Shown: piece by piece, positions 3,968-20,879 of the stretch | Numbering within the stretch: position 1 is the first letter of the stretch | Layout: every line of letters begins with the position of its first letter | NCBI GenBank assembly: GCA_014822185.1 | Contig: QVLR01000079.1 | Coordinates: forward strand, 101,401-131,400 | Direction of reading: 5' to 3' | Origin: Azoarcus sp. Aa7 | GTDB taxonomy: Bacteria; Pseudomonadota; Gammaproteobacteria; Burkholderiales; Rhodocyclaceae | Length of the DNA stretch: 30,000 nt | Position numbers and translations under genes: made by a program | Notes under the pieces: generated by a model | What the model was told of the DNA's origin: nothing | Seen by the model: the letters and a program-made list of their open reading frames with translations, nothing else | The model's database searches: none

Positions 3968-4317
3968 ATTGGCACATGATAGCCGGGTTTGCGGTCAATC
4001 TCGTCCGGATGCGCGCGGCGCCGCAGGCATCGGGGGCCAACACGGAACCGTGGCTGCGAGGCGGCACGACTGCCGGGGTTGATCTACGATACCATTAAAT
4101 AATGGAACATCGTTCTATCCGTTGCAATGGTGTTTGCAGTCGGCGCGGCCCCGGTGCGGCGAGGCGGCAACACGGACAGGAAGGCCGCGCGCGGCGGCGC
4201 AGAAAGCCGTTGGGTTCATGCGGGGCGTATGATAATAATTACGCTGAGGCCAAGCGCCGTTCGCGCTGGATACATACATATACGGCCCGCTCGCAAGTGG
4301 CAACCAGGAGTCAAAGG

Positions 4318-5205
4318 ATGCAAGACCCGTTTTTTCCGACCTCTGATGCTTCAGGCAACGTCCTGGGGATGGACGGTCTCGAATTCGTCGAATTCGCTTC
4401 GCCCGACCCGGATGCGCTCGGCGCTCATTTCGAACGCATGGGTTTTTCCGCCGTGGCGAAGCACAGGTCGAAGAACGTGGTCCTGTACCGCCAGGGCGAC
4501 ATCAATTTCCTCGTCAACTCCGACGAGGAGAGCTTTGCGCAGACTTTCAACCGGACCTACGGGCCGGGGATCTGCGCGATCGCGCTGCGCGTGAAGAACG
4601 TGGCGTCCGCGTACAAGCGTGCGCAGGCGATGGGTGCGTGGGACGTGCCGCCGCATGCGGGCGCGATGGAATTGAACATCCCCGCGATCATCGGCATCGG
4701 CGGAACGCATGTTTACTTCATCGACCGCTACGGCGATCACACGATCTACGACGTCGACTTCGTGCCGCTGCCGCAGACGAAACCGCCGGCGACGCCGATG
4801 GGGCTGACGAGCGTGGAGCACGTGGCGCTCACCGTGTGTGCGGGTCGTGAACAGGAGTGGATCGAGTTTCACGAGCAGGTGTTCGGATTCCGCGTGCTGC
4901 AAACGAGCGCGAGCGGGTCCATCTGGATGGAAAGCCCCTGCGGCAAGTTGCGCATCGTCCTGCGTCCGGCGTCCGACCAGGTACGCGAGGGGGAGCCGCC
5001 GGCCGACCCGCTGAACGTCGAGGGGATCGCCTGCATCGGCATAGAGACGCATTCGCTTGCGGATGTGGCGGCAGGCTTCGGCGAGACGGGGATTCCGGTC
5101 GCCCGCGGGCCGGAGAACGATCCGGAGCGGCCGGGCGTGAAGCATCTGGTCACCGCGCCGGTCGTGGATCCGTTCTACTTCGAGATCGTGCAGCGCACGG
5201 AGTGA
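4318..5205 (+). CDS. 4-hydroxyphenylpyruvate-dioxygenase-like VOC-fold protein (equivalent of the C-terminal domain of QsuB/QuiC1 3-dehydroshikimate dehydratases)
   Basis: ORF 4102..5205. The start is taken at ATG 4318 (MQDPFFP) behind CAGGAG/AAGGA; the upstream 72 codons are Arg-rich junk. Shows a two-module glyoxalase/HPPD pattern (GLEFVEFASPDP...MGF; VEHVALTV...) and ends in FYFEIVQR, the HPPD-type FFE(I/F)IQR motif. Confidence 0.75.
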   Translation: MQDPFFPTSDASGNVLGMDGLEFVEFASPDPDALGAHFERMGFSAVAKHRSKNVVLYRQGDINFLVNSDEESFAQTFNRTYGPGICAIALRVKNVASAYKRAQAMGAWDVPPHAGAMELNIPAIIGIGGTHVYFIDRYGDHTIYDVDFVPLPQTKPPATPMGLTSVEHVALTVCAGREQEWIEFHEQVFGFRVLQTSASGSIWMESPCGKLRIVLRPASDQVREGEPPADPLNVEGIACIGIETHSLADVAAGFGETGIPVARGPENDPERPGVKHLVTAPVVDPFYFEIVQRTE

Positions 5206-5273
5206 TCCGGCGCGGCCAGGTTCGACAGCAATCACCTCAGCAATCAAGTTTCTCCGCCCGGGCGGCACGAACG

Positions 5274-6116
5274 ATGAAGACTCACAGGATCGGGATCAAC
5301 AGCGCGACGCTCCCCGGAACGCTGCACGAGAAAATGGACGCCGTGCGGGAAGCGGGATTCGGTGCCTTGGTATTGAGCGCCAAGGATCTGCTGGCGCATC
5401 CCGATGGCGCCGCTGCCGCTGCACGCAAGGTGCGCGCGAGCGGCGTGCGGGTAAGCGCGTTCCAGTTCCTGCGGGAAATGACCGGGGACTCCGACCGCGA
5501 GGTCGGTTACCGCATCGATGCGGCGAAATCGATGATCGAACTGGCGGCTTCGGTGGGCTGCCGGCTGCTGATCGTCTCCTCGTCGACGGCACCCACGGCC
5601 ATCGCCGATCCGGCGGCGCTGGCGCGCAACCTCGCAGTGCTCGGCACGCTTGCAACCCCTTACGGCATCCGCATCGGCTACGAGGCACTGGCGTGGGGGC
5701 GCTGGGTGAGCGAGTACCCCGATGCGTGGCAGGTCGTGCAGATGGCGAACCGCCACAACGTCGGCCTGGTCATCGACTCCTTCCAGATCCTGATGCGGCA
5801 GACCTCGCTCGATTTGCTGGCGGACATTCCGGCCGACCGCATCTTCCTCGCGCAGTTGTCGGACTGCTCGTTCGACTTCGTGACCGAGATCGACGAGTTC
5901 GTCGAGATTTCGCGTCACGAGCGCCGCTTCCCCGGCGAAGGCGTGCATGGCCGGCTGATTTCCGACCTCGTCGCGCGCCTGCGGGGCAAGGGTTATGCGG
6001 GCGATTACACCCTCGAAGTCTTCAATGACGAGAATCTGCGCTCCGCTCTGCCGGCCGTGATCGCCCGCGCGCAGGCGTCGGTGCAGTGGCTCGCCGACAA
6101 GGTCGCCGCGGCCTGA
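5274..6116 (+). CDS. Xylose-isomerase-like TIM-barrel protein, 3-dehydroshikimate dehydratase type (QsuB/QuiC1 N-terminal domain-like)
   Basis: Start at ATG 5274 (MKTHRIGINSATLPG). Motifs I recognise from QsuB/QuiC-type DSDs: IGYEALAWG, DSFQIL, IFLAQLSD, SRHERRFPGEG, TLEVFND. Confidence is for the family; DSD activity is inferred. Confidence 0.75.
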   Translation: MKTHRIGINSATLPGTLHEKMDAVREAGFGALVLSAKDLLAHPDGAAAAARKVRASGVRVSAFQFLREMTGDSDREVGYRIDAAKSMIELAASVGCRLLIVSSSTAPTAIADPAALARNLAVLGTLATPYGIRIGYEALAWGRWVSEYPDAWQVVQMANRHNVGLVIDSFQILMRQTSLDLLADIPADRIFLAQLSDCSFDFVTEIDEFVEISRHERRFPGEGVHGRLISDLVARLRGKGYAGDYTLEVFNDENLRSALPAVIARAQASVQWLADKVAAA

Positions 6117-6264
6117 TTCCTTCCTGCTGAGTTGCGTGTCGCGGCCGTCCGGCGTGCGGCACGTCCCTCTATTCCCGGCGTCGCGACACCGTGGCGCCCC
6201 CATGTGTTCCGGTTGCCGCGGCGCGCGGCGACGCCCCCCCTCCTTTCAAGTGGTCAGGTGCGCG

Positions 6265-6295
6265 GGTCGCACGGGTGTTTTGCGACCTTGTTCTG
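6265..6295 (+). terminator. Possible weak intrinsic terminator after the TIM-barrel gene
   Basis: 7-bp stem GGTCGCA/TGCGACC (6265-6271 / 6281-6287) followed by TTGTTCTG. Short stem and interrupted T-tract. Confidence 0.3.
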
Positions 6296-6322
6296 AAAAA
6301 CAAAACAAGGTTCTAAAAGCGG

Positions 6323-6351
6323 TTGCACTGTGAAGAATTGCGTTCTATTAT
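6323..6351 (+). promoter_or_regulatory. Sigma70-type promoter TTGCAC-N17-TATTAT for the CoA-transferase operon, with operator-like box GAATTGCGTTC in the spacer
   Basis: Read directly: TTGCAC 6323-6328, 17-nt spacer, TATTAT 6346-6351, ATG at 6405. The 11-mer 6335-6345 is the exact reverse complement of 16349-16359. Confidence 0.5.
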
Positions 6352-6404
6352 TCGATCAACGTGACAGGATCGATGTTGATCCACAGTGAACTAAGGGGTA
6401 GCAC

Positions 6405-7607
6405 ATGACTGCAGCGCTTTCCGGAATCCGCGTCCTCGACCTGACCAACGTTCTGGCGGGGCCGTTCTGCGCGTATCAGCTGGCGCTGCTCGGTGCCGAG
6501 GTGATCAAGGTCGAGGTGCCGGAGTCGGGCGATCTGGCGCGTCAGCTCGGGGCCGATCCGGCGCTGAACAAGGCGAAGATGGGCGCGTCCTTCCTCGCGC
6601 AGAACGGCGGCAAGAAGTCGCTGACGCTGAACCTCAAGTCCGACGCGGGCAAGGAGGTGCTGTTCCGCCTCGTGAAGAGCGCCGATGTGCTGGTCGAGAA
6701 CTTCCGCCCGGGCGTGATGGATCGCTTGGGCCTCGGTTACGACGTGCTGAAGGAAGTGAATCCGAAGCTCGTCTATTGCGCGATTTCGGGTTTCGGCCAG
6801 CAGGGTCCGATGCGGCACGCGCCGGCCTACGACCAGATCGTGCAGGGCATGTCGGGCGTGATGAGCATCACCGGCGACGATGAGTCCGCACCCTTGCGCG
6901 TGGGCTACCCGGTCGCCGACACCATCGGCGGCATCACCGCGGCCTTCGCGGTGTCGAGCGCGCTGGTGCGTCAGGCGAAGACCGGCGAAGGCGAATTCAT
7001 CGACGTGTCGATGCTCGATTCGACGATCGTGACGATGGGCTGGGTGGTGTCGAACTACCTGATCGCCGGCAAGGAGCCGGTGCCGATGGGCAACGAGAAC
7101 TTTACCGCGGCGCCGTCGGGCACCTTCCGTACCGGCGAGGGGCCGCTCAACATCGCCGCGAACAAGCAGGAGCAGTTCGAGGCGCTGGCGGATGCGATCG
7201 GCCGGCCCGATCTGAAGACCGACGAGCGTTTCGCCGAGCGCGAGGCCAGGAAGCGCAACCGCAAGGCGCTGAAGGCGGAGGTCGAGTCAGGGCTGGCGTC
7301 GAAGTCGGCGGGCGAGTGGGAAACCATCCTCGCGAAGCTGGGCGTGCCCGCGGGCTGCGTGCTGACCGTGCCGCAGGTGCTGGAACATCCGCAGATCCGC
7401 GAACGCGACCTGCTCGCCAAGTTCGAAGACGTGCCGGGCGTGGGGCGCGACCTCAGCCTCGTGCGTGCCGGCTTCAAGATGCGCGGCGGCAATCCCGACG
7501 TGGCGACACCGCCGCCGGTGCTCGGCGCGCACACCGACTCGCTGCTGGCCGAACTGGGCTATTCCGCGGGCGAGATTTCGCAACTCCACGAACAACAGGC
7601 GGTTTGA
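6405..7607 (+). CDS. Family III (CaiB/BaiF/Frc-type) CoA-transferase
   Basis: 400 aa. GIRVLDLTNVLAGPFCAYQLALLGAEVIKVE, ADVLVENFRPGVMDRLGLGY, YCAISGFGQ; the catalytic Asp region GYPVADTIGG is present. Confidence 0.9.
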   Translation: MTAALSGIRVLDLTNVLAGPFCAYQLALLGAEVIKVEVPESGDLARQLGADPALNKAKMGASFLAQNGGKKSLTLNLKSDAGKEVLFRLVKSADVLVENFRPGVMDRLGLGYDVLKEVNPKLVYCAISGFGQQGPMRHAPAYDQIVQGMSGVMSITGDDESAPLRVGYPVADTIGGITAAFAVSSALVRQAKTGEGEFIDVSMLDSTIVTMGWVVSNYLIAGKEPVPMGNENFTAAPSGTFRTGEGPLNIAANKQEQFEALADAIGRPDLKTDERFAEREARKRNRKALKAEVESGLASKSAGEWETILAKLGVPAGCVLTVPQVLEHPQIRERDLLAKFEDVPGVGRDLSLVRAGFKMRGGNPDVATPPPVLGAHTDSLLAELGYSAGEISQLHEQQAV

Positions 7608-7609
7608 AC

Positions 7610-8449
7610 ATGAAGAGTGCCGAGGACATCGTCCGCGACGCGCAGGCGTGGTGGACCACCGAAATCATCGACATCGAGCCGGGCAGGATCGCGATGCGCG
7701 GCTACCCGATCGAGGAACTGATCGGCAACGTCAGCTTCCCGCAGATGATCTGGCTGATGGTGCGCGGCGACCTGCCGACGCCGGAGCAGTCGCGGTTGCT
7801 GGAAGCGGCGCTGGTGGCGGCGGTGGATCATGGCCCGCATGCGCCGTCGATCGCGATCTCGCGCATGGCCGTGACCTGCGGCGTCGAGCTGAACAACGCG
7901 ATGGCGTCGGCGGTGAACGTGCTGGCCGGCATCCACGGTGGCGCGGGGCAGCAGTGCATGGAGCTGTATGCCGACGCGGCGCGCCGCATCGCAGAAGGTG
8001 TGGCCCTCGAAGAAGCTGTCGAGGCCGCACTCGATGCCTATATTGCAGAGAACGGCAAGGTGATCCCCGGTTTCGGCCACCGCTTCCATCCGATCGACCC
8101 GCGCTCGGGCAAGCTGCTCGCAATGGTCGAGGAAGCGCGTGCGAAGGGTGTCGTCGAGGGGCTGTATTCGCAGATCGGCCAGCAGGTCGAGGCGATCCTC
8201 GAGCGGCGCAAGGGCAAGCGCATCCCGATGAACATCGACGGGGCGACGGCGGTGATCTACGCGGAGCTGGGTTTCGCGCCGGAACTGGGGCGCGGGCTCT
8301 TCATCCTGTCGCGTTCGGTCGGCATCCTGGCCCACGCGTGGGAGCAGTCGCAGCAGGGCGGTCGCATCAAGGGGCCGATGCCCAAGAACATTCCTTACAC
8401 CTATGCGGGACCGGCGCGCCGTGCCGTTCCCGGGAAGAACCAGGCGTAG
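7610..8449 (+). CDS. Short citrate-synthase-like protein (citryl-CoA-lyase-type, lacks the N-terminal part of full citrate synthases)
   Basis: ATG 7610 lies 2 nt after the CoA-transferase stop (coupled). 279 aa. All three citrate-synthase catalytic motifs are recognisable: LAGIHGGAG (His), PGFGHRFHPIDPR (His), MNIDGATAVIY (Asp). Confidence 0.8.
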   Translation: MKSAEDIVRDAQAWWTTEIIDIEPGRIAMRGYPIEELIGNVSFPQMIWLMVRGDLPTPEQSRLLEAALVAAVDHGPHAPSIAISRMAVTCGVELNNAMASAVNVLAGIHGGAGQQCMELYADAARRIAEGVALEEAVEAALDAYIAENGKVIPGFGHRFHPIDPRSGKLLAMVEEARAKGVVEGLYSQIGQQVEAILERRKGKRIPMNIDGATAVIYAELGFAPELGRGLFILSRSVGILAHAWEQSQQGGRIKGPMPKNIPYTYAGPARRAVPGKNQA

Positions 8450-8539
8450 CCCCGGCTTCGCAAGTGACGGCATAGCGCACGGGTTCGCCCGTGCCGACAT
8501 CGAAACGGAAATGACATCCAAATCTGGAGGCGACGCCAA

Positions 8540-10300
8540 ATGAAGCAACTGATCTCCCATCAGCTCGTCCGGTATCTCGAAGACCGCGGGGTCGAGCACA
8601 TCTTCGGCCTTTGCGGCCACACGAACATCGCGGTGCTGACGGCGCTGGAAAACAGCAAGATCCGCTTCATCAACACGCGCCACGAGCAGATCGCCGCGCA
8701 CGCCGCCGACGGCTATGCCCGCGCGACGAAGAAGGCGTCGGTCGTGCTGTCGCACCTCGGACCGGGCCTGACCAACGCCGCGACCGGCGTCGCGAACGCC
8801 GCGCTCGATTCGATCCCGATGGTGGTGATCGCGGGCGACATCCCGAGCTACTACTACGGCAAGCACCCGCACCAGGAGATCAACCTGCACGCGGACGCGT
8901 CGCAGTGGGAGATCTACCGCCCCTTCGTGAAGCGTGCGTGGCGTGTCGATACGCCGGAGCTGTTCCCGGAGATCCTCGAAAAGGCCTTCCAGCTCGCCGA
9001 AAGCGGGCGTCCCGGCCCGGTGCTGGTGAACGTGCCGATGGATTTCTTTTCGCGCGAGATCGACGTTTCGCTCTTCACCCGCCTGCGTCATCACACCAAG
9101 GCGGTGCAGAAGCCGTCGATCGACGACGTGACCGCAAAGAAGATCGTGCAGGCGCTGCTCGACGCGAAGGATCCGGTGATCTACGCCGGTGGCGGCGTGA
9201 TCCTGGCCGATGCGGCCCAGGAGCTGCGCGCCTTCGCCGAGCACCTGTCGCTGCCCGTCGCGCATTCGCTGATGGGCAAGGGCGTGCTGCCGGACGACCA
9301 TGAGCTGGTGTTGGGCATGACTGGCTTCTGGGGTACGAAGCTGGTGAACGACAAGTGCCGCAACGCGGACTGGATCATCGGCCTCGGCACGCGCTTTGCG
9401 GAAGCCGACTGCAGTTCGTGGGAGAACGAGTTCACCTTTTCCTTCCCGCCGACCAAGCTGATCCACATCGATATCGATTCGAACGAGATCGGGCGCAATT
9501 ATCCGGTCGAGATCGGCGTCGTCACCGACCTCAAGAGCGCGCTGACGGTGCTCAACCGCGTCGCCCGCGAGATGCTGCCGGAAGGCCGCAGGAACGACGC
9601 GCTGCGCAAGGAAATCGCGGCGTTCCGCGAGACCTTCGTGGCCGGCAACCAGAAGTTCGTGCAGGACGACTGCTTCCCGATGATGCCCGAGCGCATCCTG
9701 TCGGTGGTGCGCGAAGTGCTGCCGCGCGACGCGTTCATCACCACCGACGTGGGCTGGAACAAGAACGGCGTCGGTCAGCAGTTCCCGATCTACACGCCGG
9801 GCAGCATCCTGACCCCGGGCGGCTACTGCACGATGGGTTTCGGCGCCCCCGCGGCGCTCGGCGCGAAGGTCGCATTCCCGGACCGCGTGGTCGTGTCGCT
9901 GGTGGGTGACGGCGGCTTCGGCCAGAACCCGGCGGTGCTCGCGACGGCGGTCGAGGAGAACATCCCGGTGATCTGGGTCATCATGAACAACTTCGCGTTC
10001 GGCACCATCGCCGGCCTGCAGAAGGCGCACTACGGCACGACGACCGGCACGCTGTTTCGCAAGGACGGCGAGCCCTACCAGGCGGATTTCGCCGCGGTGG
10101 CGCGTGCGTATGGCGCGGAAGGCGTGAAGATCGAATCGGCCGAGCAGTTCAAGGAAGTGCTCGCGCAGGCGGTGAAGTCTAACAAGCCCTTCGTGATCGA
10201 CGTCGCGATGAAGAACAACCCGGTGCCGACGACCGGCCACTGGAACATCCTCGACATCTACTCGCCGAACGCGAAGGTGTCGCACGTCAGCACGGACTAA
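8540..10300 (+). CDS. Thiamine-diphosphate-dependent enzyme of the acetolactate synthase / glyoxylate carboligase / pyruvate oxidase superfamily (substrate unknown)
   Basis: 586 aa. Catalytic Glu context RHEQIAAHAADGYAR, GPGLTNA, and the ThDP-binding GDG...NN motif (LVGDGGFGQNPAVLATAVEENIPVIWVIMNN). Does not look like the Xsc, Oxc, IolD or cyclohexane-1,2-dione hydrolase sequences as far as I can recall them. Confidence 0.9.
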   Translation: MKQLISHQLVRYLEDRGVEHIFGLCGHTNIAVLTALENSKIRFINTRHEQIAAHAADGYARATKKASVVLSHLGPGLTNAATGVANAALDSIPMVVIAGDIPSYYYGKHPHQEINLHADASQWEIYRPFVKRAWRVDTPELFPEILEKAFQLAESGRPGPVLVNVPMDFFSREIDVSLFTRLRHHTKAVQKPSIDDVTAKKIVQALLDAKDPVIYAGGGVILADAAQELRAFAEHLSLPVAHSLMGKGVLPDDHELVLGMTGFWGTKLVNDKCRNADWIIGLGTRFAEADCSSWENEFTFSFPPTKLIHIDIDSNEIGRNYPVEIGVVTDLKSALTVLNRVAREMLPEGRRNDALRKEIAAFRETFVAGNQKFVQDDCFPMMPERILSVVREVLPRDAFITTDVGWNKNGVGQQFPIYTPGSILTPGGYCTMGFGAPAALGAKVAFPDRVVVSLVGDGGFGQNPAVLATAVEENIPVIWVIMNNFAFGTIAGLQKAHYGTTTGTLFRKDGEPYQADFAAVARAYGAEGVKIESAEQFKEVLAQAVKSNKPFVIDVAMKNNPVPTTGHWNILDIYSPNAKVSHVSTD

Positions 10301-10310
10301 GCTTCCCGTG

Positions 10311-10331
10311 GGGCGGGACTTGATCCCGCCC
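10311..10331. repeat. Single REP-like hairpin GGGCGGGActtgaTCCCGCCC directly after the ThDP gene
   Basis: Same GGCGGGA-N5-TCCCGCC stem as the repeats at 20887, 20933, 21953 and 22003. May double as a transcript-stabilising or terminator hairpin. Confidence 0.5.
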
Positions 10332-10398
10332 TGCGCGCCCCCGACCCCAACCCCGACAGACAGCGTTATCAGGCATCGAACAAGAGAAGGAAGCTTCC

Positions 10399-11259
10399 AT
10401 GGACAATGCAGGACCGAACCCGCTGTCGATCTCCGGTTCGACGCTCCTCTACCCGGTCATCGGCTACCCGGTGGGCCAGGTAAAGGCGCCGATTCTGTAC
10501 AACAAGCTGTTCGCCGCGACCGGTATCGATGCGGTGGTGGTGCCGCTGGAGATCGCGCCGGCCGACTTCGCGAGAGTCGGGCCGGCGCTTTTTGCCGTTT
10601 CCAACGTGCGCGGCGCGATGATCACGATCCCGCACAAGCCCGCGTGCGTCGATTTTCTCGACGCGGCGAGCGCCGCGGTGAGGGCCGCCGGCGCGTGCAA
10701 CGCGATCGTCAAGCGCGCGGACGGCACGCTCTTCGGCGATCTCTTCGACGGCGTCGGCTTCGTACGCGGCTTGAAGCGCGCGGGCGTCGAGCCGAGGGGC
10801 ATGCGCTGCCTGGTCGTGGGCTCGGGCGGCGTCGGTGCGGCGATCGCCGTGGCGTTGGGCGAGGCCGGCGCGGCGAGCGTGGGCGTGTCGGACATCAGCG
10901 CCGACAGCGCGGCACGGCTTGCAGGGCGGCTCGTGAGCTTCGGCGTGTGCCGCGAGGCCTTCGTCGCGACGAACGACCCCGCGGGCTACGATCTCGTCGT
11001 CAACGCGACACCGCTCGGGCTCAAGGAGAGCGATCCGCTGCCGGTGCCGGTCGAGCGCCTCGCGCCCGGCACGGTGGTCGCGGACGTCATCATGAAGATC
11101 GACTTCACGCCGCTCCTGCTCGCCGCGCGTGAGCGCGGCTGCACGATACACATGGGGCGGGAGATGTTCATCGAGATGGCGCCGCTGTATCTTTCGCTGT
11201 TCGGTTACGACGGCTACACCTCCGACGGCATCCGCAAGCTGGTCGGCTACAAGGATTGA
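10399..11259 (+). CDS. Shikimate/quinate dehydrogenase-family oxidoreductase (non-canonical substrate motifs)
   Basis: 286 aa. Shows the AroE/YdiB architecture: ITIPHK (catalytic Lys), GACNAI, GDLFDGVGF (catalytic Asp), Rossmann VVGSGGVGAAIA, NATPLG. The N-terminal HSxSP/SRTP carboxylate-binding motif reads GQVKAP, and NTD reads LFD. Confidence 0.8.
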   Translation: MDNAGPNPLSISGSTLLYPVIGYPVGQVKAPILYNKLFAATGIDAVVVPLEIAPADFARVGPALFAVSNVRGAMITIPHKPACVDFLDAASAAVRAAGACNAIVKRADGTLFGDLFDGVGFVRGLKRAGVEPRGMRCLVVGSGGVGAAIAVALGEAGAASVGVSDISADSAARLAGRLVSFGVCREAFVATNDPAGYDLVVNATPLGLKESDPLPVPVERLAPGTVVADVIMKIDFTPLLLAARERGCTIHMGREMFIEMAPLYLSLFGYDGYTSDGIRKLVGYKD

Positions 11260-11324
11260 GGACAGGGCGGGTGCGGCCTGCGGGCCGCGCGGGCGCCCGT
11301 TTCGAATTGACGAGGAATCAAGTG

Positions 11325-12107
11325 ATGGCATTTACCCGTGCTCTGGAAGTGAAAGGCAAGCCGGTCGGCGAAGGCAAGGAACCGCTGGTGTGCGCACCGC
11401 TGGTCGGCCGTGACGAGGCCGGCGTGCTCGGCGAACTCGACGCGATCGTCGCGAAGCAGCCCGATCTGCTCGAATGGCGCGTCGATTTCTTCGCTGGCAT
11501 CGCCGATACCGGCCGAGTCGTGGAACTGGCGCAGGAAGTCCGCAAGAGCTCGGCGGGAATTCCGATCATCTTCACGCGCCGCTCGATCCGCGAAGGCGGC
11601 GAGACGATCGGCATCTCGGAAGAGCAGGTGCTTGAGATGTACCAGGCGGTCGCGCGTTCGGGCGCGGTCGATTTCCTCGACTACGAGCTGTCGTGCGAGC
11701 CGAAGCATTTCGCCGCCGCTGTCGAACTTGCCCGCGAGACCGGCACGAAGCTGATCGCGTCCTTCCACAACTTCCAGAAGACCCCGTCGGCCGAGGAGAT
11801 CGTCGCGAAGTTCGTCTCGATGGAAAAGGCCGGCGCGGATGTCGCGAAGGTCGCGGTGATGCCGCAGGGGCTCGAGGACGTGCTGACCGTGCTGCAGGCG
11901 ACGCTGGACGGACAGAAGAAGATCTCGCTGCCCATCATCAGCATGTCGATGGGCGCCTACGGCTCGCTCTCGCGCCTGTTCGGCTGGGTGTTCGGTTCGT
12001 CGGTGAGCTTTGCGGTCGGGCAGAAGGCGTCGGCTCCGGGACAGGTGCCGATCGAGGATCTGCGACGCGTTCTCGACGTGCTGCAGCGTTCGCTCGCCGG
12101 AAAGTAA
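11325..12107 (+). CDS. aroD: Type I 3-dehydroquinate dehydratase
   Basis: Start at ATG 11325 behind GAGGAA. Collinear with E. coli AroD as I recall it: LEWRVD, IFTRRS..EGG, SFHNF (His143 equivalent), ADVAKVAVMP (Schiff-base Lys170 equivalent), ISMSMG, ASAPGQ. Confidence 0.9.
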   Translation: MAFTRALEVKGKPVGEGKEPLVCAPLVGRDEAGVLGELDAIVAKQPDLLEWRVDFFAGIADTGRVVELAQEVRKSSAGIPIIFTRRSIREGGETIGISEEQVLEMYQAVARSGAVDFLDYELSCEPKHFAAAVELARETGTKLIASFHNFQKTPSAEEIVAKFVSMEKAGADVAKVAVMPQGLEDVLTVLQATLDGQKKISLPIISMSMGAYGSLSRLFGWVFGSSVSFAVGQKASAPGQVPIEDLRRVLDVLQRSLAGK

Positions 12108-12157
12108 GTTCCGCGCCGGGAGGCGCGGCGGCGTAGAATCCCGCGCCCCCAATTCGA

Positions 12158-12197
12158 GCCGCATCCGGCCCGCTTCTGCGGCCCGGATGCGGCTTTT
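12158..12197 (+). terminator. Rho-independent terminator after aroD
   Basis: 16-nt arms GCCGCATCCGGCCCGC / GCGGCCCGGATGCGGC (one mismatch), loop TTCT, followed by TTTT (12194-12197). Confidence 0.7.
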
Positions 12198-12217
12198 GCA
12201 TTTCCCGGAATCCCCCC

Positions 12218-12967
12218 ATGACCTTCGATACCGCAGGCTGGATCGTCGCCGGCATTGCCGTGCTGCTCACCGGCATCTCCAAGTCCGGCCTCGGCGGCGC
12301 CTTCGGCGGGCTCGCCGTGCCCTTCATGTCGCTGTGGATCACGCCCGTCCAAGCGGCGGCGGTGATGCTGCCGTTGCTCGTGTTCATCGACTGGATCGGG
12401 ATCCGGGCGTACTGGCGCAGATGGTCGAGCGAGGAAATCCGCCTGCTGCTGCCCGCCGCCGCGGTTGGCATGCTGGTCGGGACGGTGGTGTTCGGCTGGA
12501 TGCCGGAGAAGGCGGTGAAGGGCTGCGTCGGCGCGATCGCCGTGCTGTTCGCGCTCGACCGGATCTTCGGGCTGCGCGCCCGGCTCAAGCTTTCGGGGCC
12601 GCCGGGGAAGGCCACGGGGCTGTTCTGGGGCGCGGTGTCGGGCTTCACCAGCACGATTGCGCACGCCGGTTCGCCGCCGCTGCTCGTGTATCTGCTCAAC
12701 CGTGGCCTCGCCAAGGACACTTTCGTCGCGACCACGGTGATCTACTTCACTGCGGTCAACGCCGTGAAGATCGTGCCCTATGCGGCGCTGGGGCTGTTCA
12801 CGTGGGAATCGCTGAAGATGTCGCTGCTGCTCGCGCCGATCGCTCCCGTCGGCGTGTGGATCGGCCTCAAGGCGCTGAAGCGCATCCCGGAACGGGCGTT
12901 CTTCGTGTTCGCGACGGCGATGCTAGGGCTTTCCGGCGTGAAGCTGCTGTGGGATGCGTTCGCGTGA
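12218..12967 (+). CDS. TSUP (TauE/SafE) family anion-exporter-like membrane protein
   Basis: 249 aa, about 8 hydrophobic segments, duplicated G-rich motifs (GISKSGLGGAFGGLAVP; GFTSTIAHAGSPPLLVYLL). Confidence 0.85.
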   Translation: MTFDTAGWIVAGIAVLLTGISKSGLGGAFGGLAVPFMSLWITPVQAAAVMLPLLVFIDWIGIRAYWRRWSSEEIRLLLPAAAVGMLVGTVVFGWMPEKAVKGCVGAIAVLFALDRIFGLRARLKLSGPPGKATGLFWGAVSGFTSTIAHAGSPPLLVYLLNRGLAKDTFVATTVIYFTAVNAVKIVPYAALGLFTWESLKMSLLLAPIAPVGVWIGLKALKRIPERAFFVFATAMLGLSGVKLLWDAFA

Positions 12968-12970
12968 GCC

Positions 12971-13912
12971 TCAACCGAGCTGCGGCTGAAGCATCCAGAT
13001 CACCGCGCTCACCGAGAAGAAGGCGCTGATCGTCGTGGCCATCAGCGCGGCGGCGGGGAGTTCCTCCTGGCCGAAGCGCTGCGCGATGATCGGGAAGATG
13101 CTCGCCATCGGCATGCAGGCGAAGGCGATCGCCGCGACGCGCAGCGTCGGATCGAGCGGCGGCAGGAGCGTCAGCGCGATGAACACGAAGAGCGGGTGAA
13201 GGACGAGCTTGCCTGCGACGATTTGCGCGATGTCGCGGCGCATGCCGCGGACCTTGATGCCGACCAGCGTCCCGCCGATGACGAAGAGCGCCACACCCGC
13301 CGCGGCGAGCGAGAGCATGTCGATGGAGCGCGCGACCGGAGCGGGCAGGCGGATGCCCAGCAGCGCGAGGCTGAAACCTGCGACGATGGCGATGATGAGC
13401 GGGTTTTTCGCAAGCCGGGTGAAGGTCTCGATCACCACGCGATGAATCTTCTTGCCGTCACCCCCTCTGCTCTCGGCGAGCGCCAGCGTCAGCGGCACGA
13501 TCAGCAGGTTCTCGACGAGGAAGCACAGCGCCAGCGCGATGCCGGCCGCCGGGCCGACGACCTGCAGCACGATCGGGTAACCGATGAAGCCGCTGTTCGA
13601 CAGGGACATGCCCATGCCGTGCACCACGCCGGTCTGCAGCGTTTTCTTCTGCACGAGGCGCGCGAAGCCGATGCCCGCGGCGAAGGCCGCAAGCGAGCCG
13701 AGCGTGTAGGCGGTCAGGTAGCCGACGTTCATGATCTCGGAGAAGGGACGTTCGGTCAGCGCTTTCAACAGCATCGCCGGCAGCGCGATGTTGATCGCGA
13801 ACTTGCCGAGGATGCGCGTCTCGCTCTTGTCGAAGAGGCCGTTGCGCACCGCGGCGAAGCCGATCGCGATGACGAGGAAGGCCGGGCCGGTGATCAAAAA
13901 AACGTCGAGCAT
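12971..13912 (-). CDS. AEC (auxin efflux carrier) family transporter
   Basis: ORF 12971..13960. I prefer the start at M17 (ATG 13912, MLDVFLITGPAFLVIAIGF), the typical AEC N-terminus. Polytopic throughout. Confidence 0.85.
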   Translation of the reverse strand: MLDVFLITGPAFLVIAIGFAAVRNGLFDKSETRILGKFAINIALPAMLLKALTERPFSEIMNVGYLTAYTLGSLAAFAAGIGFARLVQKKTLQTGVVHGMGMSLSNSGFIGYPIVLQVVGPAAGIALALCFLVENLLIVPLTLALAESRGGDGKKIHRVVIETFTRLAKNPLIIAIVAGFSLALLGIRLPAPVARSIDMLSLAAAGVALFVIGGTLVGIKVRGMRRDIAQIVAGKLVLHPLFVFIALTLLPPLDPTLRVAAIAFACMPMASIFPIIAQRFGQEELPAAALMATTISAFFSVSAVIWMLQPQLG

Positions 13913-13969
13913 GGGTGCAATCCGGAGGGGTGCGCGGAGCATAACACCGGGGTGTGGCATGTCCGCGAA

Positions 13970-14497
13970 CTAGACGAGTCCGAGGGCTCCCGCCGCCGCG
14001 CCGGCACCGATGTACCACAGGGGGTGCCAGCTGCGCACGGACATGAGGCCGGTGCACGCGAGCGTCAGCAGGATGCCGCGCAGGTCGAGTCCCGCCGAGG
14101 CGCCGATCAGCCAGCCGCTCGTACAGACCAGGCCCACGGCGAGGGGGGCGACGCCGGTCTGGATCGCCTCGCGCCACGGTGCGTCGCGGAAGCGTTCCCA
14201 ATGCCGGTAAAGAAAGAAGATGACCAGGCTCATCGGCAGGCTGATTGCGAGTGTCGCGGCGATCGCGCCCGGGATGCCGGCAACCTTCCAGCCGATCAGC
14301 GACACGACCAGCAGGTTGGGCCCCGGTGCGGCCTGGGCGATCGCGAAGAGGTGGGCGAAGGTGGTTTCGTCCATCCACTGGCGCTGCTCGACGACGACGC
14401 GGTGCAACTCGGGCAGCATCGCCGTGATGCCGCCGAAGGCGACCACGGTGAGGATGCTGAACTGCAGGAAAAGATCGGCGAGCAGCGCCACCGTCAC
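13970..14497 (-). CDS. Short-chain chromate-ion-transporter (CHR) family protein, C-terminal-type half
   Basis: 175 aa. CHR signature: AFGGITAMLPELHRVVVEQRQWMDETTFAHLFAIAQAAPGPN. Confidence 0.85.
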   Translation of the reverse strand: MTVALLADLFLQFSILTVVAFGGITAMLPELHRVVVEQRQWMDETTFAHLFAIAQAAPGPNLLVVSLIGWKVAGIPGAIAATLAISLPMSLVIFFLYRHWERFRDAPWREAIQTGVAPLAVGLVCTSGWLIGASAGLDLRGILLTLACTGLMSVRSWHPLWYIGAGAAAGALGLV

Positions 14498-15126
14498 GAG
14501 TCCGTTTTCGCGGTTGTGGCTAGCCCCGCCGCGCGGCGCGCGCGCCTATAGGCGATGAGGCCGGTCATGCCGAGCAGCGCCAGCATCAGCGGCGGCAGCG
14601 GCAGGCGCAGGATCACCAGCGCAACGAGGATCAGCGCCGCGAAGGGCAGGTAGATCCACCGCTCGGGCACGTTGCGCGCCATCTTCAATGCTGTCGCGAA
14701 GAGCAGTCCCGCGCCGGCGGCCGCGATGCCGCGCAGCATGTCCTGCACGACGGCGAGGTGACCCCAGACGCCGTAGGCGGTCGCGAGCGCCATCATCACG
14801 AGGAAGGGGCCGAGCAGCAGTCCGGAGGTCGCGACGATCGCGCCGCGCGCACCGTGGAAGCGCGCGCCCACGCACACGGCGAGATTGACGACGTTGGAGC
14901 CGGGCAGGAACTGGCACAGGCCGAGCAGGGCGTTGAAATCGGCGCCGCTCATGAGACGGCGTTCCTCGACGAGGAGATGCCGCAGCAGCGGCAGCACGCC
15001 GCCGAAGCCCGACAGGCCGACGCGCGAGCACGCGAGGAAGAGTTCCCACAGACCGGGCTGGCGCGACAGCTCCTGGTGAGGGGACCCCGGTTCCGGCGCG
15101 ACCGGGGCGGCAGGGGAGTTACTCAT
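14494..15126 (-). CDS. Short-chain CHR family protein, N-terminal-type half
   Basis: Start at M70 of ORF 14494..15333 (ATG 15126, MSNSPAAP). CHR signature GLSGFGGVLPLLRHLLVEERRLMSGADFNALLGLCQFLPGSN. Its stop overlaps the next gene's ATG (ATGA, 14494-14497), as in paired SCHR genes. Confidence 0.85.
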   Translation of the reverse strand: MSNSPAAPVAPEPGSPHQELSRQPGLWELFLACSRVGLSGFGGVLPLLRHLLVEERRLMSGADFNALLGLCQFLPGSNVVNLAVCVGARFHGARGAIVATSGLLLGPFLVMMALATAYGVWGHLAVVQDMLRGIAAAGAGLLFATALKMARNVPERWIYLPFAALILVALVILRLPLPPLMLALLGMTGLIAYRRARRAAGLATTAKTDS

Positions 15127-15253
15127 GCGTCCGGCGCTCCAGGGGCGGCGCTGCGGCGCGGGCAGGGGAAGACTCCCTCCGCGCCGCAGGCGAGGATGAG
15201 GTGCGCGGACGACGGCGGGAGGGGAGGGAGTGCCGAAGCCCGCGCGGAGGAGA

Positions 15254-16090
15254 TCAGGCCGCCGACCGGCGCAGGTACTCGTCGTGCAGGCCGTCGAGGT
15301 AGGCCTCGGCGGCGCGGATCGAGCGGCGCGCACGCTCCTCGGCGCTGACCGTCAGCGCGAGGGTGTCGGTCGGGATTTCCAGCGAGTAGGGCATTTCCGG
15401 CATCGCGTCGAGGATGCTGCGCACGTCGATGCCGCCTTCGCCGAGGAAGTTGCGTTCGCTGCGGGCGGTGTGGATGAGGCCTTCGACGGTCGTCGGGATC
15501 TCGGCCGGGGCGTCGCACACCTGCGCGAAGTGGAACCACTCGGGCGGCAGCTTGCGCAGTTCCTCGACGCTGTCGCGGGCGCGGTCGAAGTGCAGCGTGT
15601 CGACGAGGATGCCGGCGTTCGGGCGATTCACCGCGCGCACGACGGCAGCCGCCGCGGCGAGGTTCGGCGTTTCCGTCCAGCTCGGGTACTCGAGGTCGAC
15701 GGTGAGCTTGTAGGGCGCCGCGAGGTCGCACAGGCGGCCGAAACGATCGGTCGCGCGTTCGCGGTTCGCGTCGGGGAGCTGGGCGAGGATGTGGCGGGCG
15801 CCGAGTTCGGCGGCGGCTTCCAGTACGGACACATAGGTCTCGGGCTCGATCTCCGCGGGCATGCGGCAGAGTTCGATGTCGAGCACCTTCACGCCCGTTG
15901 CGGCGAGGCGCGCCTTCACCTCGTTCATCATCGCGCGGTCGTTCTGCAGCGCGAACACGTGTTCGGTCGCGGTGACCGCAGTCAGCCGGAAGCTGACGAA
16001 GTCGTAGCCGGTCTTTGCTGCGATCTCGACCATTTCGGCCGGGGACGTCGTCAGGACCGAGAGGTGGGCGAGGGAGAATTGGTGCGCCAT
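15254..16090 (-). CDS. Sugar-phosphate isomerase/epimerase-type (xylose-isomerase-like) TIM-barrel protein
   Basis: Start at ATG 16090 (MAHQFSLAHLSV) behind a strong GGAGGT RBS. The pattern of barrel motifs (LDIE, LEYP, VDTLHF, SLEIP) is typical of the AP-endonuclease-2/IolE/DSD fold. Confidence 0.8.
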   Translation of the reverse strand: MAHQFSLAHLSVLTTSPAEMVEIAAKTGYDFVSFRLTAVTATEHVFALQNDRAMMNEVKARLAATGVKVLDIELCRMPAEIEPETYVSVLEAAAELGARHILAQLPDANRERATDRFGRLCDLAAPYKLTVDLEYPSWTETPNLAAAAAVVRAVNRPNAGILVDTLHFDRARDSVEELRKLPPEWFHFAQVCDAPAEIPTTVEGLIHTARSERNFLGEGGIDVRSILDAMPEMPYSLEIPTDTLALTVSAEERARRSIRAAEAYLDGLHDEYLRRSAA

Positions 16091-16247
16091 GTCTGGACTA
16101 CCTCCAATAGTGAATGCCGGGGAGCGGCTGCACCGTTTTGCCGATAGTTGCATTAAAGCCTGCGTCGGCTATTTCTGCTGCGCCGGGGGCCACTTCCGGG
16201 GCCCAAGCGAGCAGATCGGTACGACCGATCAAATCTGTGATGAGCTA

Positions 16248-16276
16248 AATATAGAACACGGTTGCGCGAAACGCAA
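16248..16276 (-). promoter_or_regulatory. Sigma70-type promoter TTGCGT-N17-TATATT (minus strand) for the TIM-barrel gene, with box CAACCGTGTTC in the spacer
   Basis: Read directly from the reverse complement of 16248-16276. It has the same architecture as the promoters at 6323 and 16337. The leader to the ATG at 16090 would be about 150 nt. Confidence 0.4.
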
Positions 16277-16336
16277 CGAAAGTTCGTTAAATAGGTTCGA
16301 GGTGCAAAACCATATTGCGCGCAGCGGATTTACGCG

Positions 16337-16365
16337 TTGACAAAACATGAACGCAATTCTAAAGT
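16337..16365 (+). promoter_or_regulatory. Sigma70-type promoter TTGACA-N17-TAAAGT for the IclR gene, with box GAACGCAATTC in the spacer and a perfect-arm palindrome GAACAaTGTTC (16367-16377) at about +1
   Basis: Read directly. Consensus -35, 17-nt spacer, 4/6 -10, ATG at 16401. Confidence 0.5.
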
Positions 16366-16400
16366 GGAACAATGTTCAAGTTTTAAAGCGAGGTGCGGAG

Positions 16401-17231
16401 ATGGCTGGAAGTCTTCTTGCCCGTGCGATGGGAGCGCTGGAGCTCCTCGCCGAAGAGTCGCGCGGACTGCCGTTGCAGGAGATCGCCGATCGCCTGGGGA
16501 TGCCGAAGAGCGGGGCGCACCGCCTGCTGGCCGAGCTGATCCAGCTGCGCTACGTCGCGCAGGATGCGGATTCGGCGCGCTATCTCCTGACGACGCGCCT
16601 GATGTCGCTCGGCTTCAAGCTGCTCGGCAACAGCGGCTTCGTCGAGATCGTGCAGCCCGTGCTGAACCGCCTTGCGACCGTGAGCGGTGAGCTCGTGCGC
16701 CTGGCGGTCGTCGACAACGGGCGTCTTCCGTTCATCGCCAAAGCGCAGGGGGCACGCAGCGGCCTGCGCTTCGACCCGGACATGGGCGGCGAGGCGGCGC
16801 TGTACTGTTCGTCGAGCGGCATGATCTGGCTCGCGAGCCTGCCCGAGAACGAGGCGATCGAGCACGTCGTGCGCCAGGGCTTCACTCTGCCCGAGCAGCG
16901 CGGCGCCCGCGCACCGAAGACGATCGCCGAGGTGATGGCCTTTGTTACGGACGCCCGCGAGCGCGGCTACAGCCGGGCGATCGAGACCTGGGGCCCCGGC
17001 ATGTCATCGATGGCCGCGACCGTGCGTGACCCGCACAGCGGACGCGTCACCGGCGTTGTCAGCATCGCCGGGCCCACGGTACGCCTGACCGAAGAAGCGA
17101 TGGAAAAGCTCGCGCCCGAACTCTTCGCGGCAGCCGAGGAGCTGTCCTCGGTCAGCGCCCTTTCCGAATACCTCAGAAGCATCAATCCGGCCGCGGGACA
17201 GCCCGCGTCGGGCTCTCAACGCGCGGCCTGA
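16401..17231 (+). CDS. IclR-family transcriptional regulator
   Basis: Start at ATG 16401 (MAGSLLARAMGALELL) behind GAGGTGCGGAG. HTH LPLQEIADRLGMPKSGAHRLLAEL, and C-terminal effector domain (ALYCSSSGMIWLA ... MSSMAATV ... GVVSIAGP). Confidence 0.9.
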   Translation: MAGSLLARAMGALELLAEESRGLPLQEIADRLGMPKSGAHRLLAELIQLRYVAQDADSARYLLTTRLMSLGFKLLGNSGFVEIVQPVLNRLATVSGELVRLAVVDNGRLPFIAKAQGARSGLRFDPDMGGEAALYCSSSGMIWLASLPENEAIEHVVRQGFTLPEQRGARAPKTIAEVMAFVTDARERGYSRAIETWGPGMSSMAATVRDPHSGRVTGVVSIAGPTVRLTEEAMEKLAPELFAAAEELSSVSALSEYLRSINPAAGQPASGSQRAA

Positions 17232-17280
17232 CGCGCCTCCTCAAGCAATCGCAGCCAAGGCACCACTGGAGACATCGAAA

Positions 17281-18453: not shown

Positions 18454-18466
18454 TCGTCCGACCGAG

Positions 18467-18558
18467 CGTAGGGCGGAAAAGCGAAGCGCCTTCCGCCGGA
18501 TGTTGGCGGCGGGCGGCCCCCATGCGGCGGATTACGCCTTCGGCTCATCCGCCCTACG
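18467..18558. repeat. REP-like composite palindromic element (outer arms CGTAGGGCGG...CCGCCCTACG, two internal imperfect hairpins)
   Basis: Read directly: CGTAGGGCGGAAAAGCGAAGCGCCTTCCGCC ... GGCGGATTACGCCTTCGGCTCATCCGCCCTACG. It shares the GTAGGGCGG terminus with the elements at 20887 and 21953 but has different hairpin interiors. Confidence 0.6.
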
Positions 18559-18584
18559 CGTTCCCGGTAATCATGGAGTGTGAC

Positions 18585-20114: not shown

Positions 20115-20129
20115 CAGGAGATATTGCGA

Positions 20130-20879
20130 ATGAAAGTACTGGTTCCTGTAAAGCGGGTCGCCGATTACAACATCAAGGTGCGCCCGAAGTCCGACGGTTC
20201 GGGCGTCGAGCTTGCGAACGTGAAAATGTCGATGAACCCCTTCGACGAGATTGCCGTCGAGGAGGCGGTGCGGCTGAAGGAGGCGGGCGTCGCGACCGAA
20301 GTCGTCGCGGTGTCCTGCGGGACCGCCGTATGCCAGGAAACACTGCGGACGGCGCTCGCAATGGGCGCGGACCGCGCGATCCTCGTTGAAACCGACGTCG
20401 AGCTGCAGTCGCTCGCGGTCGCGAAGCTGGTCAAGGCGGTCGCCGAGAAGGAAGGCGCTCAGCTCGTGATCTGCGGCAAGCAGGCGATCGACGACGACGC
20501 CAACCAGACCGCGCAGATGCTCGCGGCGCTGCTCGACTGGGGGCAGGCGACCTACGCGTCGAAGGTGGTCGTCGCCGACGGCAATGTCGAAGTGACGCGC
20601 GAGGTCGACGGCGGCCTCGAAACCGTCCGGGTCGCGCTGCCGGCCGTGGTCAGTGCCGACCTGCGCCTGAACGAGCCGCGCTACGCGACGCTGCCCAACA
20701 TCATGAAGGCGAAGAAGAAGCCGCTCGAGACGCTCAAGGCCTCCGAGCTCGGCGTCGACATCGCGCCACGCGTGCAGATGCTGTCGGTCTATACGCCGCC
20801 CGAGCGCAAGGGCGGCATCATGGTCGGTTCGGTCGCCGAACTGGTGCAGAAGCTCAAGGACGAAGCCCGCGTGCTGTGA
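20130..20879 (+). CDS. etfB: Electron transfer flavoprotein, beta subunit
   Basis: ATG 20130 is 9 nt after CAGGAG (the track start at 20124 is a TTG). [18 protein letters not shown] ... [14 protein letters not shown] ... [10 protein letters not shown]. Confidence 0.9.

Follow-up and report, generated by a model that had tools for sequence, protein, structure and literature searches.

Two blocks of enzyme genes that carry similar inverted repeats in their promoters, with two regulator genes of one family standing beside them, raise the question of whether one protein reads all of the repeats or two proteins share them. Such a locus lies in a 30,000-nucleotide stretch of Azoarcus sp. Aa7 (contig QVLR01000079.1; hereafter the window), the DNA of an Aromatoleum-type betaproteobacterium with a GC content of 66%. 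One block comprises an operon that begins with a family III CoA-transferase gene and includes the gene of an ALS-like thiamine diphosphate (ThDP) enzyme, together with the gene of a second xylose-isomerase-like TIM barrel (TIM2); the other comprises iclR2 and the genes for an acyl-CoA dehydrogenase (ACAD), a FadX-like CoA-transferase and an electron transfer flavoprotein (ETF; etfB and etfA). A sequence-only reading of this DNA had found boxes of the type GAAC-N3-GTTC in the promoters of both blocks and had joined the blocks in one IclR regulon. Our comparison with related genomes indicates that the boxes are real, evolutionarily conserved sites of the IclR type, and we consider it probable that they are operators of two regulators, IclR1 and IclR2, which would recognize the same kind of half-site (xGAAC) in different arrangements.

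All boxes and promoters of the earlier reading were recovered with the sequences and positions that it gave. The CoA-transferase promoter (6323-6351) reads TTGCAC-tgtgaa-GAATTGCGTTC-TATTAT, the iclR2 promoter (16337-16365) TTGACA-aaacat-GAACGCAATTC-TAAAGT and the TIM2 promoter (16276..16248, minus strand) TTGCGT-ttcgcg-CAACCGTGTTC-TATATT, and two further boxes read TGGAACATCGTTC (4103-4115) and TGGAACAATGTTC (16365-16377). Over the whole 30 kb, GAAC-N3-GTTC with at most one mismatch is not enriched (11 observed, 11.35 expected), nor is the exact 11-mer with at most two mismatches (7 observed, 9.7 expected). Within the 4135 bp of intergenic DNA, the same one-mismatch pattern occurs six times where 1.38 would be expected, a number reached in none of 300 dinucleotide shuffles, and control patterns (everted, direct, reversed, N2 and N4) stand at expectation there. 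All six sites fall within three intergenic regions (3932-4317, 6117-6404 and 16091-16400). Significance comes only from the test restricted to intergenic DNA and from longer composite patterns. TTGC-N8-SAAY-N3-RTTC has three matches in the window against 0.05 expected, at 6323-6345 on the plus strand and at 16254-16276 and 4105-4127 on the minus strand, and GTTSC-N9-AAY-N3-RTTC is likewise present at all three of these sites, which are referred to below as three-box sites. A matrix built from sites of other genomes (consensus T-R-GAAC-N3-GTTC-Y-A; at least 10 bits) has exactly six matches in the 30 kb, all of them intergenic and none coding; five were already known from the sequence-only reading, and 6301-6315 is new. 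Also absent from that reading were two poorer matches, the degenerate one at 3950-3964 and a distal one, weak in the window, near 16286-16300.

Synteny was mapped in 80 loci fetched around homologues of the ThDP enzyme, and the pattern searches covered 87 loci. The intergenic regions of the window and of Aromatoleum diolicum have only 48-65% overall identity, and all six sites are kept. In orthologous promoters of several genera the boxes lie between the -35 and -10 elements, and their retention extends through Aromatoleum and Castellaniella to further betaproteobacterial genomes. When the six window sites are turned into a matrix, it finds 2.14 matches per 10 kb in the 15 loci with IclR1 or IclR2 orthologues and 0.19 per 10 kb in the remaining 65 loci (Mann-Whitney p = 5e-11). 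The identification of the boxes as IclR operators in the sequence-only reading is therefore supported, by this difference in density, by the orthologous promoter positions and by agreement with the group 2 consensus of the family.

The boxes occur in two layouts, and each layout follows one of two IclR lineages, which is why we favour two regulons. IclR1 and IclR2 share 21% identity and differ in their recognition helices (STTLRL and SGAHRL, respectively). Orthologues of iclR1 (54-99% identity), in which the helix-turn-helix segment GFYKSTTLRL is highly conserved, stand beside the CoA-transferase/lyase/ThDP operon in loci L001-3, 5, 19, 22, 23, 28, 73, 83 and 84. The three-box pattern is found at the expected promoter positions in 17 loci that have an IclR1 orthologue or come from a genome having one; seven further loci have a single match each, and in three of these the same gene cluster stands next to it. 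Every one of the 7 fetched loci with an IclR2 homologue has the tandem pattern, in which two palindromes follow each other closely; the homologues are 54-84% identical to IclR2 (three at 67-71%), and the pattern is absent from the other 80 loci. Matrix scores separate the IclR1 and IclR2 cores only weakly; it is the architecture, and not the core motif, that discriminates.

The order iclR2-ACAD-CoA-transferase-etfBA is found in L003, L005, L081 and the P0018 contig and in part in L085 and L086, and the iclR2 unit of L082 lacks the genes for ACAD and CoA-transferase. At 67-71% identity, IclR2 orthologues precede ACAD/CoA-transferase/etfBA units on contigs where no ThDP cluster is visible, and there too the tandem operator is kept. 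A gene for ETF-quinone oxidoreductase accompanies the unit on two contigs, and in L082 this gene has the same tandem operator. The opposite case is that of Azoarcus KH32C, A. tolulyticum and A. toluolicum, where IclR1 occurs with three-box sites and no IclR2 block lies within the fetched loci, and one hit list contained no NCBI-sourced IclR2 orthologue of these three, which is suggestive only. In these relatives (L084, L001 and L002, respectively) the cluster ends after the dehydroquinase or TauE gene; the A. toluolicum contig stops at the cluster end and a transposase follows in KH32C, and the transporter/TIM2/iclR2/ACAD block is not adjacent, so the juxtaposition of the two blocks is strain-specific.

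In the window the tandem operator lies at the iclR2 promoter, which scores 10/12 in the promoter scan. Box A (ATGAACGCAATTCTA) and box B (TGGAACAATGTTCAA) have centres 18 bp apart, and the pattern (16349-16377) is unique in the window. Its general layout is TTGACA, 3-5 nt, box A, the -10 hexamer and box B, with the centres 18 bp apart, or 22 bp in L085; the promoter is conserved in six aligned sequences, to which L085, L086 and L087 were added by eye. It had been pointed out earlier that the 11-mers at 6335-6345 and 16349-16359 are exact reverse complements, and in the window they are; the identity is lost in A. diolicum (GAATTGCGTTC as against GAAGGCAGTTC), so we regard it as a coincidence within a shared consensus and not as a special feature. 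The most distant IclR2 homologue, at 54% identity in Crenobacter sp. SG2303 (L087), retains the tandem operator (5938-5979); the genes after it (6001-12831) encode FAD oxidoreductases, NIPSNAP, a TIM barrel and a homologue of shikimate/quinate dehydrogenase (SDH), resembling the lig1 operon of Pseudomonas putida, and HPPD-like, TIM, AroQ and SDH genes lie upstream of it.

At the three-box promoters, a GTTGC element (box 3, a putative third half-site) coincides with the -35 element and the palindrome abuts the -10 hexamer. In the CoA-transferase promoter the proximal palindrome (6333-6347) is AAGAATTGCGTTCTA, and the distal box scores 17.8-20.1 bits across matrices. When this promoter was aligned from 11 genomes (Aromatoleum, two metagenome-assembled genomes, five Castellaniella genomes and Azoarcus KH32C), GTTGC, AATT, GTTCTA and the last T of the -10 hexamer were invariant and the other spacer positions varied; AAAA..TT..AAAA in the distal box was also invariant. 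The TIM2 promoter shows GTTGC.T...AA...TTCTAT.TT invariant in 8 genomes; the window copy of its box has a weakened half-site (10-11.5 bits), and the weak distal box near 16286-16300 lies upstream. In Castellaniella the distal and proximal boxes are 33 bp apart at both promoters. The spacers of both are 17 bp, the -10 hexamers are good (5/6) and the -35 hexamers weak (3/6). A consensus promoter scan calls the iclR2 promoter only, so the CoA-transferase, TIM2 and iclR1 promoters, which reach 8/12 by hand reading, rest on that reading together with conservation.

Two structural observations belong to these regions. A perfect palindrome with 6-bp arms (16261-16277, GTTGCG-TTTCG-CGCAAC), flagged by a terminator scan and only partly present in A. 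diolicum, shares bases both with the -35 element of TIM2 and with the left half of its box, and it fits the group 1 arrangement of IclR sites. Upstream of the CoA-transferase promoter, an imperfect 18-nt inverted repeat (6278-6318, 78% complementary) pairs upstream sequence with the distal box; it directly follows a terminator-like hairpin (6258-6272) and is confined to the closest relatives.

The third three-box site had been assigned differently by the sequence-only reading, which placed a weaker plus-strand promoter at 4093-4121 (CATTAA...TATCCG) before the gene at 4318 and thereby drew the dehydratase genes into the regulon. That promoter matches 4/12 consensus positions, whereas the minus strand of the same region (4127..4099), directed toward iclR1, matches 8/12 of the sigma-70 positions, equal to the CoA-transferase and TIM2 promoters; we accordingly reject the plus-strand promoter in favour of this one. 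The minus-strand spacer ends in GAACGATGTTC (4115..4105), again with the box abutting the -10 hexamer, and the palindrome at 4103-4117 is TGGAACATCGTTCTA (16.7-19.4 bits across the two matrices). Orthologous loci have the same minus-strand arrangement directed at iclR1, and GTTSCR-N6-CAKAAC-N3-RTTCYA lies upstream of iclR1 in 9 genomes, down to 54% identity of the regulator. Closer to the gene, the degenerate box at 3950-3964 scores below the 9-bit cut-off in the window and is much better kept in relatives, where its position reads TGGAACCGGGTTCTC (A. diolicum), TTGAACAGTGTTCCT (L005, 18.9 bits) and AAGAACCAGGTTTCA (KH32C). Because of the minus-strand score, the orthologous arrangement and this additional box before iclR1, the region 3932-4317 is most simply read as the iclR1 promoter, and 4099-4127 is probably an autoregulated promoter of that gene.

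The box thus being better read as part of the iclR1 promoter, control of the dehydratase genes from it is doubtful in the window, where a plausible promoter for 4318 has no box nearer than about 100 bp. These two genes (HPPD-like and TIM1, 4318-6116) appear to encode a QuiC-type 3-dehydroshikimate dehydratase split in two and with its domains in reverse order, since the HPPD-like half precedes the TIM-barrel half. Their Castellaniella counterparts form one transcription unit with the orthologue of iclR1, behind a box; their membership in the regulon in this window is uncertain.

Table 1. Genes and predicted regulatory sites in the window. Genes were called from GC content at third codon positions (GC3) and Pfam/NCBIfam matches.
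Feature	Position	Strand	Components or basis
MarR gene	2694-3161	+	GC3, Pfam/NCBIfam
iclR1, IclR-family regulator, 237 aa	3218-3931	-	Pfam HTH_IclR + IclR_C
Degenerate box TGAAACCAGGTTTTC	3950-3964		Centre about 26 nt before iclR1 start codon
Predicted iclR1 promoter with three-box operator	4099..4127	-	TTGCAA 4127..4122, 17-nt spacer, CATTAT 4104..4099
HPPD-like gene	4318-5205	+	NCBIfam QuiC half
TIM barrel 1 (TIM1)	about 5250-6116	+	NCBIfam QuiC half
Distal palindrome CAAAACAAGGTTCTA	6301-6315		Centre 32 bp upstream of the proximal palindrome
Predicted CoA-transferase promoter/operator	6322..6351	+	GTTGC = box 3 = -35 element; -10 TATTAT 6346-6351
Family III CoA-transferase	6405-7607	+	First gene of operon 6405-12967; Pfam, NCBIfam, PDB
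Citryl-CoA-lyase-like protein	about 7640-8449	+	Closest PDB entry 6hxp
ALS-like ThDP enzyme	8540-10300	+	Pfam, NCBIfam, PDB
Shikimate/quinate dehydrogenase (SDH)	10399-11259	+	Pfam, NCBIfam, PDB
Type I dehydroquinase (AroD)	11256-12107	+	Pfam, NCBIfam, PDB
TauE-type permease	12218-12967	+	Last gene of operon 6405-12967
Three transporter genes	12971-15333	-	GC3, Pfam/NCBIfam
TIM2, second xylose-isomerase-like TIM barrel	15254-16090	-	Pfam AP_endonuc_2
Predicted TIM2 promoter with three-box operator	16248..16277	-	GTTGCG 16277..16272, CAACCGTGTTC 16264..16254, TATATT 16253..16248
Predicted iclR2 promoter, tandem operator	16337..16379	+	TTGACA 16337-16342; box A 16347-16361; -10 TAAAGT 16360-16365; box B 16365-16379
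iclR2	16401-17231	+	Pfam, NCBIfam
ACAD	17281-18453	+	Pfam, NCBIfam
FadX-like CoA-transferase	about 18450-20114	+	Pfam, NCBIfam
etfB, etfA	20124-21957	+	Pfam, NCBIfam
Six matrix sites	4103-4117, 6301-6315, 6333-6347, 16252-16266, 16347-16361, 16365-16379		At least 10 bits

From the existence, conservation, architecture and co-occurrence of these sites we infer which protein would bind which of them and with what effect. IclR1 would bind GTTGC-N7-NGAAY-N3-RTTC-TA, which stretches from the -35 hexamer as far as the -10 hexamer, in front of iclR1 itself (4099-4127, minus strand), of the CoA-transferase operon (6322-6351) and of TIM2 (16248-16277, minus strand). Roughly three turns of the helix upstream, the CoA-transferase promoter has a second palindrome and the TIM2 promoter a weak one, so that a tetramer could bracket the -35 element. 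IclR2 would bind two palindromes 18 bp apart in its own promoter, where they cover the spacer, the -10 hexamer and the predicted transcription start, and would thereby control iclR2-ACAD-CoA-transferase-etfBA (16401..21957). Each protein, as a dimer of dimers, would block RNA polymerase when a pathway metabolite is absent and would be released by an effector, perhaps a hydroaromatic compound or a ring-cleavage intermediate for IclR1 and a related acid or acyl-CoA for IclR2. Such occlusion is plausible, although IclR proteins placed over the spacer and -10 hexamer can also activate. Cross-binding between the two regulons is possible, since the core palindromes are nearly the same.

Several points weigh against two separate regulators with these assignments. 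The site at 4103 scores well on both matrices (16.7 and 19.4 bits) and box A scores equally on both, and because the core motifs of the two classes overlap heavily, sequence alone cannot assign sites to regulators. The IclR1-type matrix was trained partly on orthologues of the window's own sites, so this test is partly circular, and the absence of IclR2 from close relatives comes from the source labels of one hit list and not from whole genomes. The CoA-transferase and TIM2 promoters, at 8/12 and uncalled by the scan, are also compatible with activator dependence. GTTGC could simply be a -35 hexamer and not a third half-site; a role as a protein contact as well is argued, by analogy, by the spacing between boxes 3 and 2, which equals that of GTTCT-N7-AGAAC, the predicted site of regulators with an IclR1-like LYKSTxLRL helix, and in distant IclR1 loci box 3 reads GTTCC, which is not -35-like and hints at such a contact. 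Finally, a separate promoter with a box precedes the ACAD gene of Castellaniella sp. GW247-6E4 (L013), no IclR2 gene lies within 10 kb of it, and the contig also carries an IclR1 orthologue, so one regulator can serve both blocks in some genomes. That ACAD promoter (3800-3850) reads TTGACT-N5-AGAACTCGATTC-TAAAAT and so belongs to the iclR2 type, with the second box decayed, and it looks as if the regulator gene has been lost from this ACAD unit.

Activation offers another account of the three-box sites, at which IclR1 might be an effector-dependent activator or a dual regulator like PcaU, PobR and PcaR, proteins that assist RNA polymerase from a position between and over the -35 and -10 elements. 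The weak, uncalled -35 hexamers of the CoA-transferase and TIM2 promoters and the GTTCC form of box 3 in distant loci would suit such a role, the best NCBIfam match of IclR1 is the PcaR/PcaU/PobR subfamily (below its cut-off), and the IclR family includes activators and dual regulators, some of which bind in this position. In P. putida, binding of PcaR to pcaI is reported for both its -35 and its -10 element. A need for activation is harder to reconcile with spacers that are already optimal at 17 bp and with good -10 hexamers, which leave no need for distortion of the spacer; moreover, among relatives of IclR2 that have been studied the nearest is LigR2, a repressor at its own operon, lig2, and sites over the -10 hexamer and transcription start are typical of repressors. 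We therefore hold activation by IclR1 to be possible but doubtful.

A single regulon, in which one IclR protein, most simply IclR1, binds every box and the other has a different or accessory role, appears unlikely to us. The tandem layout is restricted to 7 of 87 loci, those with an IclR2 homologue, and these include contigs without a visible ThDP cluster, whereas the three-box layout follows IclR1; the two proteins are as distant as stated above, and members of the IclR family as a rule regulate their own genes plus one or two operons next to them (PMC8222616). These facts have to be set against core palindromes that are almost indistinguishable, against the reported presence of LigR2 of P. 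putida on both lig operon promoters with a motif shared by LigR1 and LigR2, and against Castellaniella, where the ACAD, TIM2 and CoA-transferase promoters all carry boxes and only an IclR1 orthologue is nearby. Since the ACAD, TIM-barrel and CoA-transferase/lyase/ThDP genes are adjacent there, all with boxes, gene neighbourhood supports a functional link between the two enzyme blocks. This much of the one-regulon proposal stands; its single regulator, set against two layouts and two IclR lineages, is not the best reading for this window.

That the boxes are not IclR sites at all, but chance AT-rich matches, generic promoter elements, or LexA-type or MarR sites, is very improbable: the one-mismatch pattern is indeed at expectation window-wide, the -10 hexamer begins with the TA of GTTCTA, and Gram-positive SOS boxes have GAAC/GTTC half-sites too, but enrichment is confined to three intergenic regions with flat N4, N2, everted and direct controls, the half-sites are invariant across genera inside otherwise variable spacers, density tracks IclR genes and not AT content (AT-rich Bacillus loci have 0-1 matches), a LexA-type (Cheo) box would read GAAC-N4-GTTC where the spacing here is 3 nt, the MarR gene is present only in the closest relatives, and a search for RNA elements gave no Rfam family match in the window.

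The interest of these IclR operators lies mainly in the genes that they would control; as regulation alone this would be ordinary IclR-type control. The gene order of the CoA-transferase operon is kept among relatives in the synteny map, and the ThDP enzyme shares 99% identity with its counterparts in A. tolulyticum and A. toluolicum and 95% with the one in A. diolicum. Searches of the PDB gave only distant relatives of the ThDP enzyme and TIM2 and no close characterized homologue; TIM2 orthologues (70-92% identity) adjoin the cluster in A. diolicum and Castellaniella. More widely, the ALS-like ThDP enzyme keeps an identity of 68-87% in Beta- and Alphaproteobacteria, Bacilli and Actinobacteria (L004-L080), where its gene repeatedly clusters with genes for a family III CoA-transferase, a citryl-CoA-lyase-like protein, a xylose-isomerase-like TIM barrel, a type I dehydroquinase and SDH. 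All NCBIfam scores for the cluster (6405-12107 and 15254-16090) fall below cut-offs, and we found no paper on it.

The cluster looks like an undescribed catabolic route for hydroaromatic compounds of the quinate/shikimate type, with ThDP-dependent ring cleavage and a citrate-like split of a CoA ester. In such a route, dehydrogenase and dehydroquinase would be followed by a TIM-barrel dehydratase, ThDP-dependent ring cleavage, CoA transfer and a citryl-CoA-lyase-type split, and the whole would be coupled to the ACAD/ETF module. We tentatively suggest, as a possibility short of even likelihood, that two distant IclR proteins with one half-site vocabulary and two grammars wire this undescribed, probably oxygen-independent route for hydroaromatic acids (quinate, shikimate), with cross-binding coordinating the units. 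What the analysis provides is a testable regulatory map for a widely conserved cluster, in which two regulators would act on four promoters through six to eight operators; both the proteins and their sites could serve as handles for the inducing substrate, and hence the pathway, and the locus is a natural case of how IclR proteins with the same half-site distinguish three-box from tandem sites.

Beyond these genera, a TTGAAYNNNGTTCTA palindrome lies about 80 bp upstream of the ThDP gene in the Bacillus pumilus group (L032, L035 at 9921-9935, L036, L037 and L066), and a distant IclR homologue (27-30% identity) is present in the locus of at least L066; the same motif type may control the ThDP gene across phyla. 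Elsewhere in the window, the region 23091-27112 contains a minus-strand gene for an RTX-repeat protein of 752 aa, and about 1.76 kb beside it (25350-27112) has no open reading frame with the typical GC3 bias of the genome.

Comparison with known systems places the boxes within the IclR family. One of its two motif types, group 2, is TGRAACA-N1-2-TGTTYCA; tandem IclR sites lie 18-22 bp apart, three- and four-turn spacings are also over-represented, and three-box sites are found in 32 orthologous groups (Suvorova & Gelfand 2021, PMC8222616). The window agrees with group 2 in its six sites with inverted GAAC/GTTC half-sites and a 3-nt gap (N2, N4, everted and direct variants being unenriched), in their location upstream of iclR1, upstream of the CoA-transferase gene or between TIM2 and iclR2, in their retention at orthologous promoters with diverged flanks, and in their spacings of 18 bp at iclR2, 22 bp in L085 and 32-33 bp at the CoA-transferase and TIM2 promoters. 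The three half-sites of alternating direction also recall the three-box sites of PcaU and PobR in Acinetobacter; here one pair is of group 2 (GAAY-N3-RTTC) and the other of group 1 (GTTGC-N7-AGAAY). Half-sites of PcaU and PobR are of the GTTCGA/TCGAAC type and the proteins are activators, whereas here box 3 coincides with the -35 hexamer and is a candidate protein contact. Classical IclR, AllR and KdgR of enterobacteria likewise bind palindromic operators over promoter elements as dimers or tetramers and control themselves and an adjacent operon; their palindromes differ in being AT-rich (TGGAAA/TTTCCA) and otherwise spaced, and the proteins are only distantly related to those of the window, with all NCBIfam scores far below cut-offs.

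Closest to IclR2 among described groups is that of PP_2601 (LigR2) and Mnod_2088, with the predicted motif ATTnTGGAAC-N3-GTTCCAGAAT (PMC8222616, Table S1). The likeness is read on the DNA-binding domain alone, which is 48% identical over 62 residues to PP_2601, with PKSGAHRLL in IclR2 for PKSAAHRML in the recognition helix; the helix-turn-helix pattern of the group, LPLQ.IA..L.IPKSGAHRLLAEL, matches IclR2, which is closer to Mnod_2088 (carrying PKSGAHRLLAEL) than to PP_2601. Boxes A and B share their palindrome with the sites predicted for the group, TGGAAC-N3-GTTC(C/T)A, and in each case an autoregulatory regulator stands beside shikimate/quinate-related genes. The targets differ: a putative dehydroshikimate dehydratase and ligC in P. 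putida, and ACAD, CoA-transferase and etfBA here. IclR2 orthologues at 67-84% identity precede the latter genes, only the 54% Crenobacter homologue stands beside lig1-like genes, and the strict tandem pair after a TTGACA -35 element is a feature of the IclR2 branch, unlike the PP_2601 group.

The locus as a whole resembles that of LigR1 and LigR2 in P. putida KT2440, where two IclR genes also flank operons with SDH-like and sugar-phosphate-isomerase-like (dehydratase) genes. LigR2 is reported to repress its own operon, lig2, until quinate, protocatechuate or 4-hydroxybenzoate releases it; LigR1 and LigR2 are reported to share a motif and LigR2 to occupy both lig operon promoters, which makes them a precedent for cross-talk, although LigR2 binding was attributed to ATTA motifs and not to the GGAAC palindrome (preprint 10.1101/2025.08.13.670189). 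IclR1 is not LigR1-like, the predicted LigR1 site being TGCGAT-N-ATCGCA, and a ThDP enzyme, a citryl-CoA-lyase-like protein and a family III CoA-transferase set the present genes apart from the lig loci. We found no description of the pathway or of the regulon in the literature, and a survey of aromatic regulation in betaproteobacteria does not cover the regulon. The motif class and both site layouts are thus already known from these systems, and what is new is their assignment to these promoters and to this set of genes.

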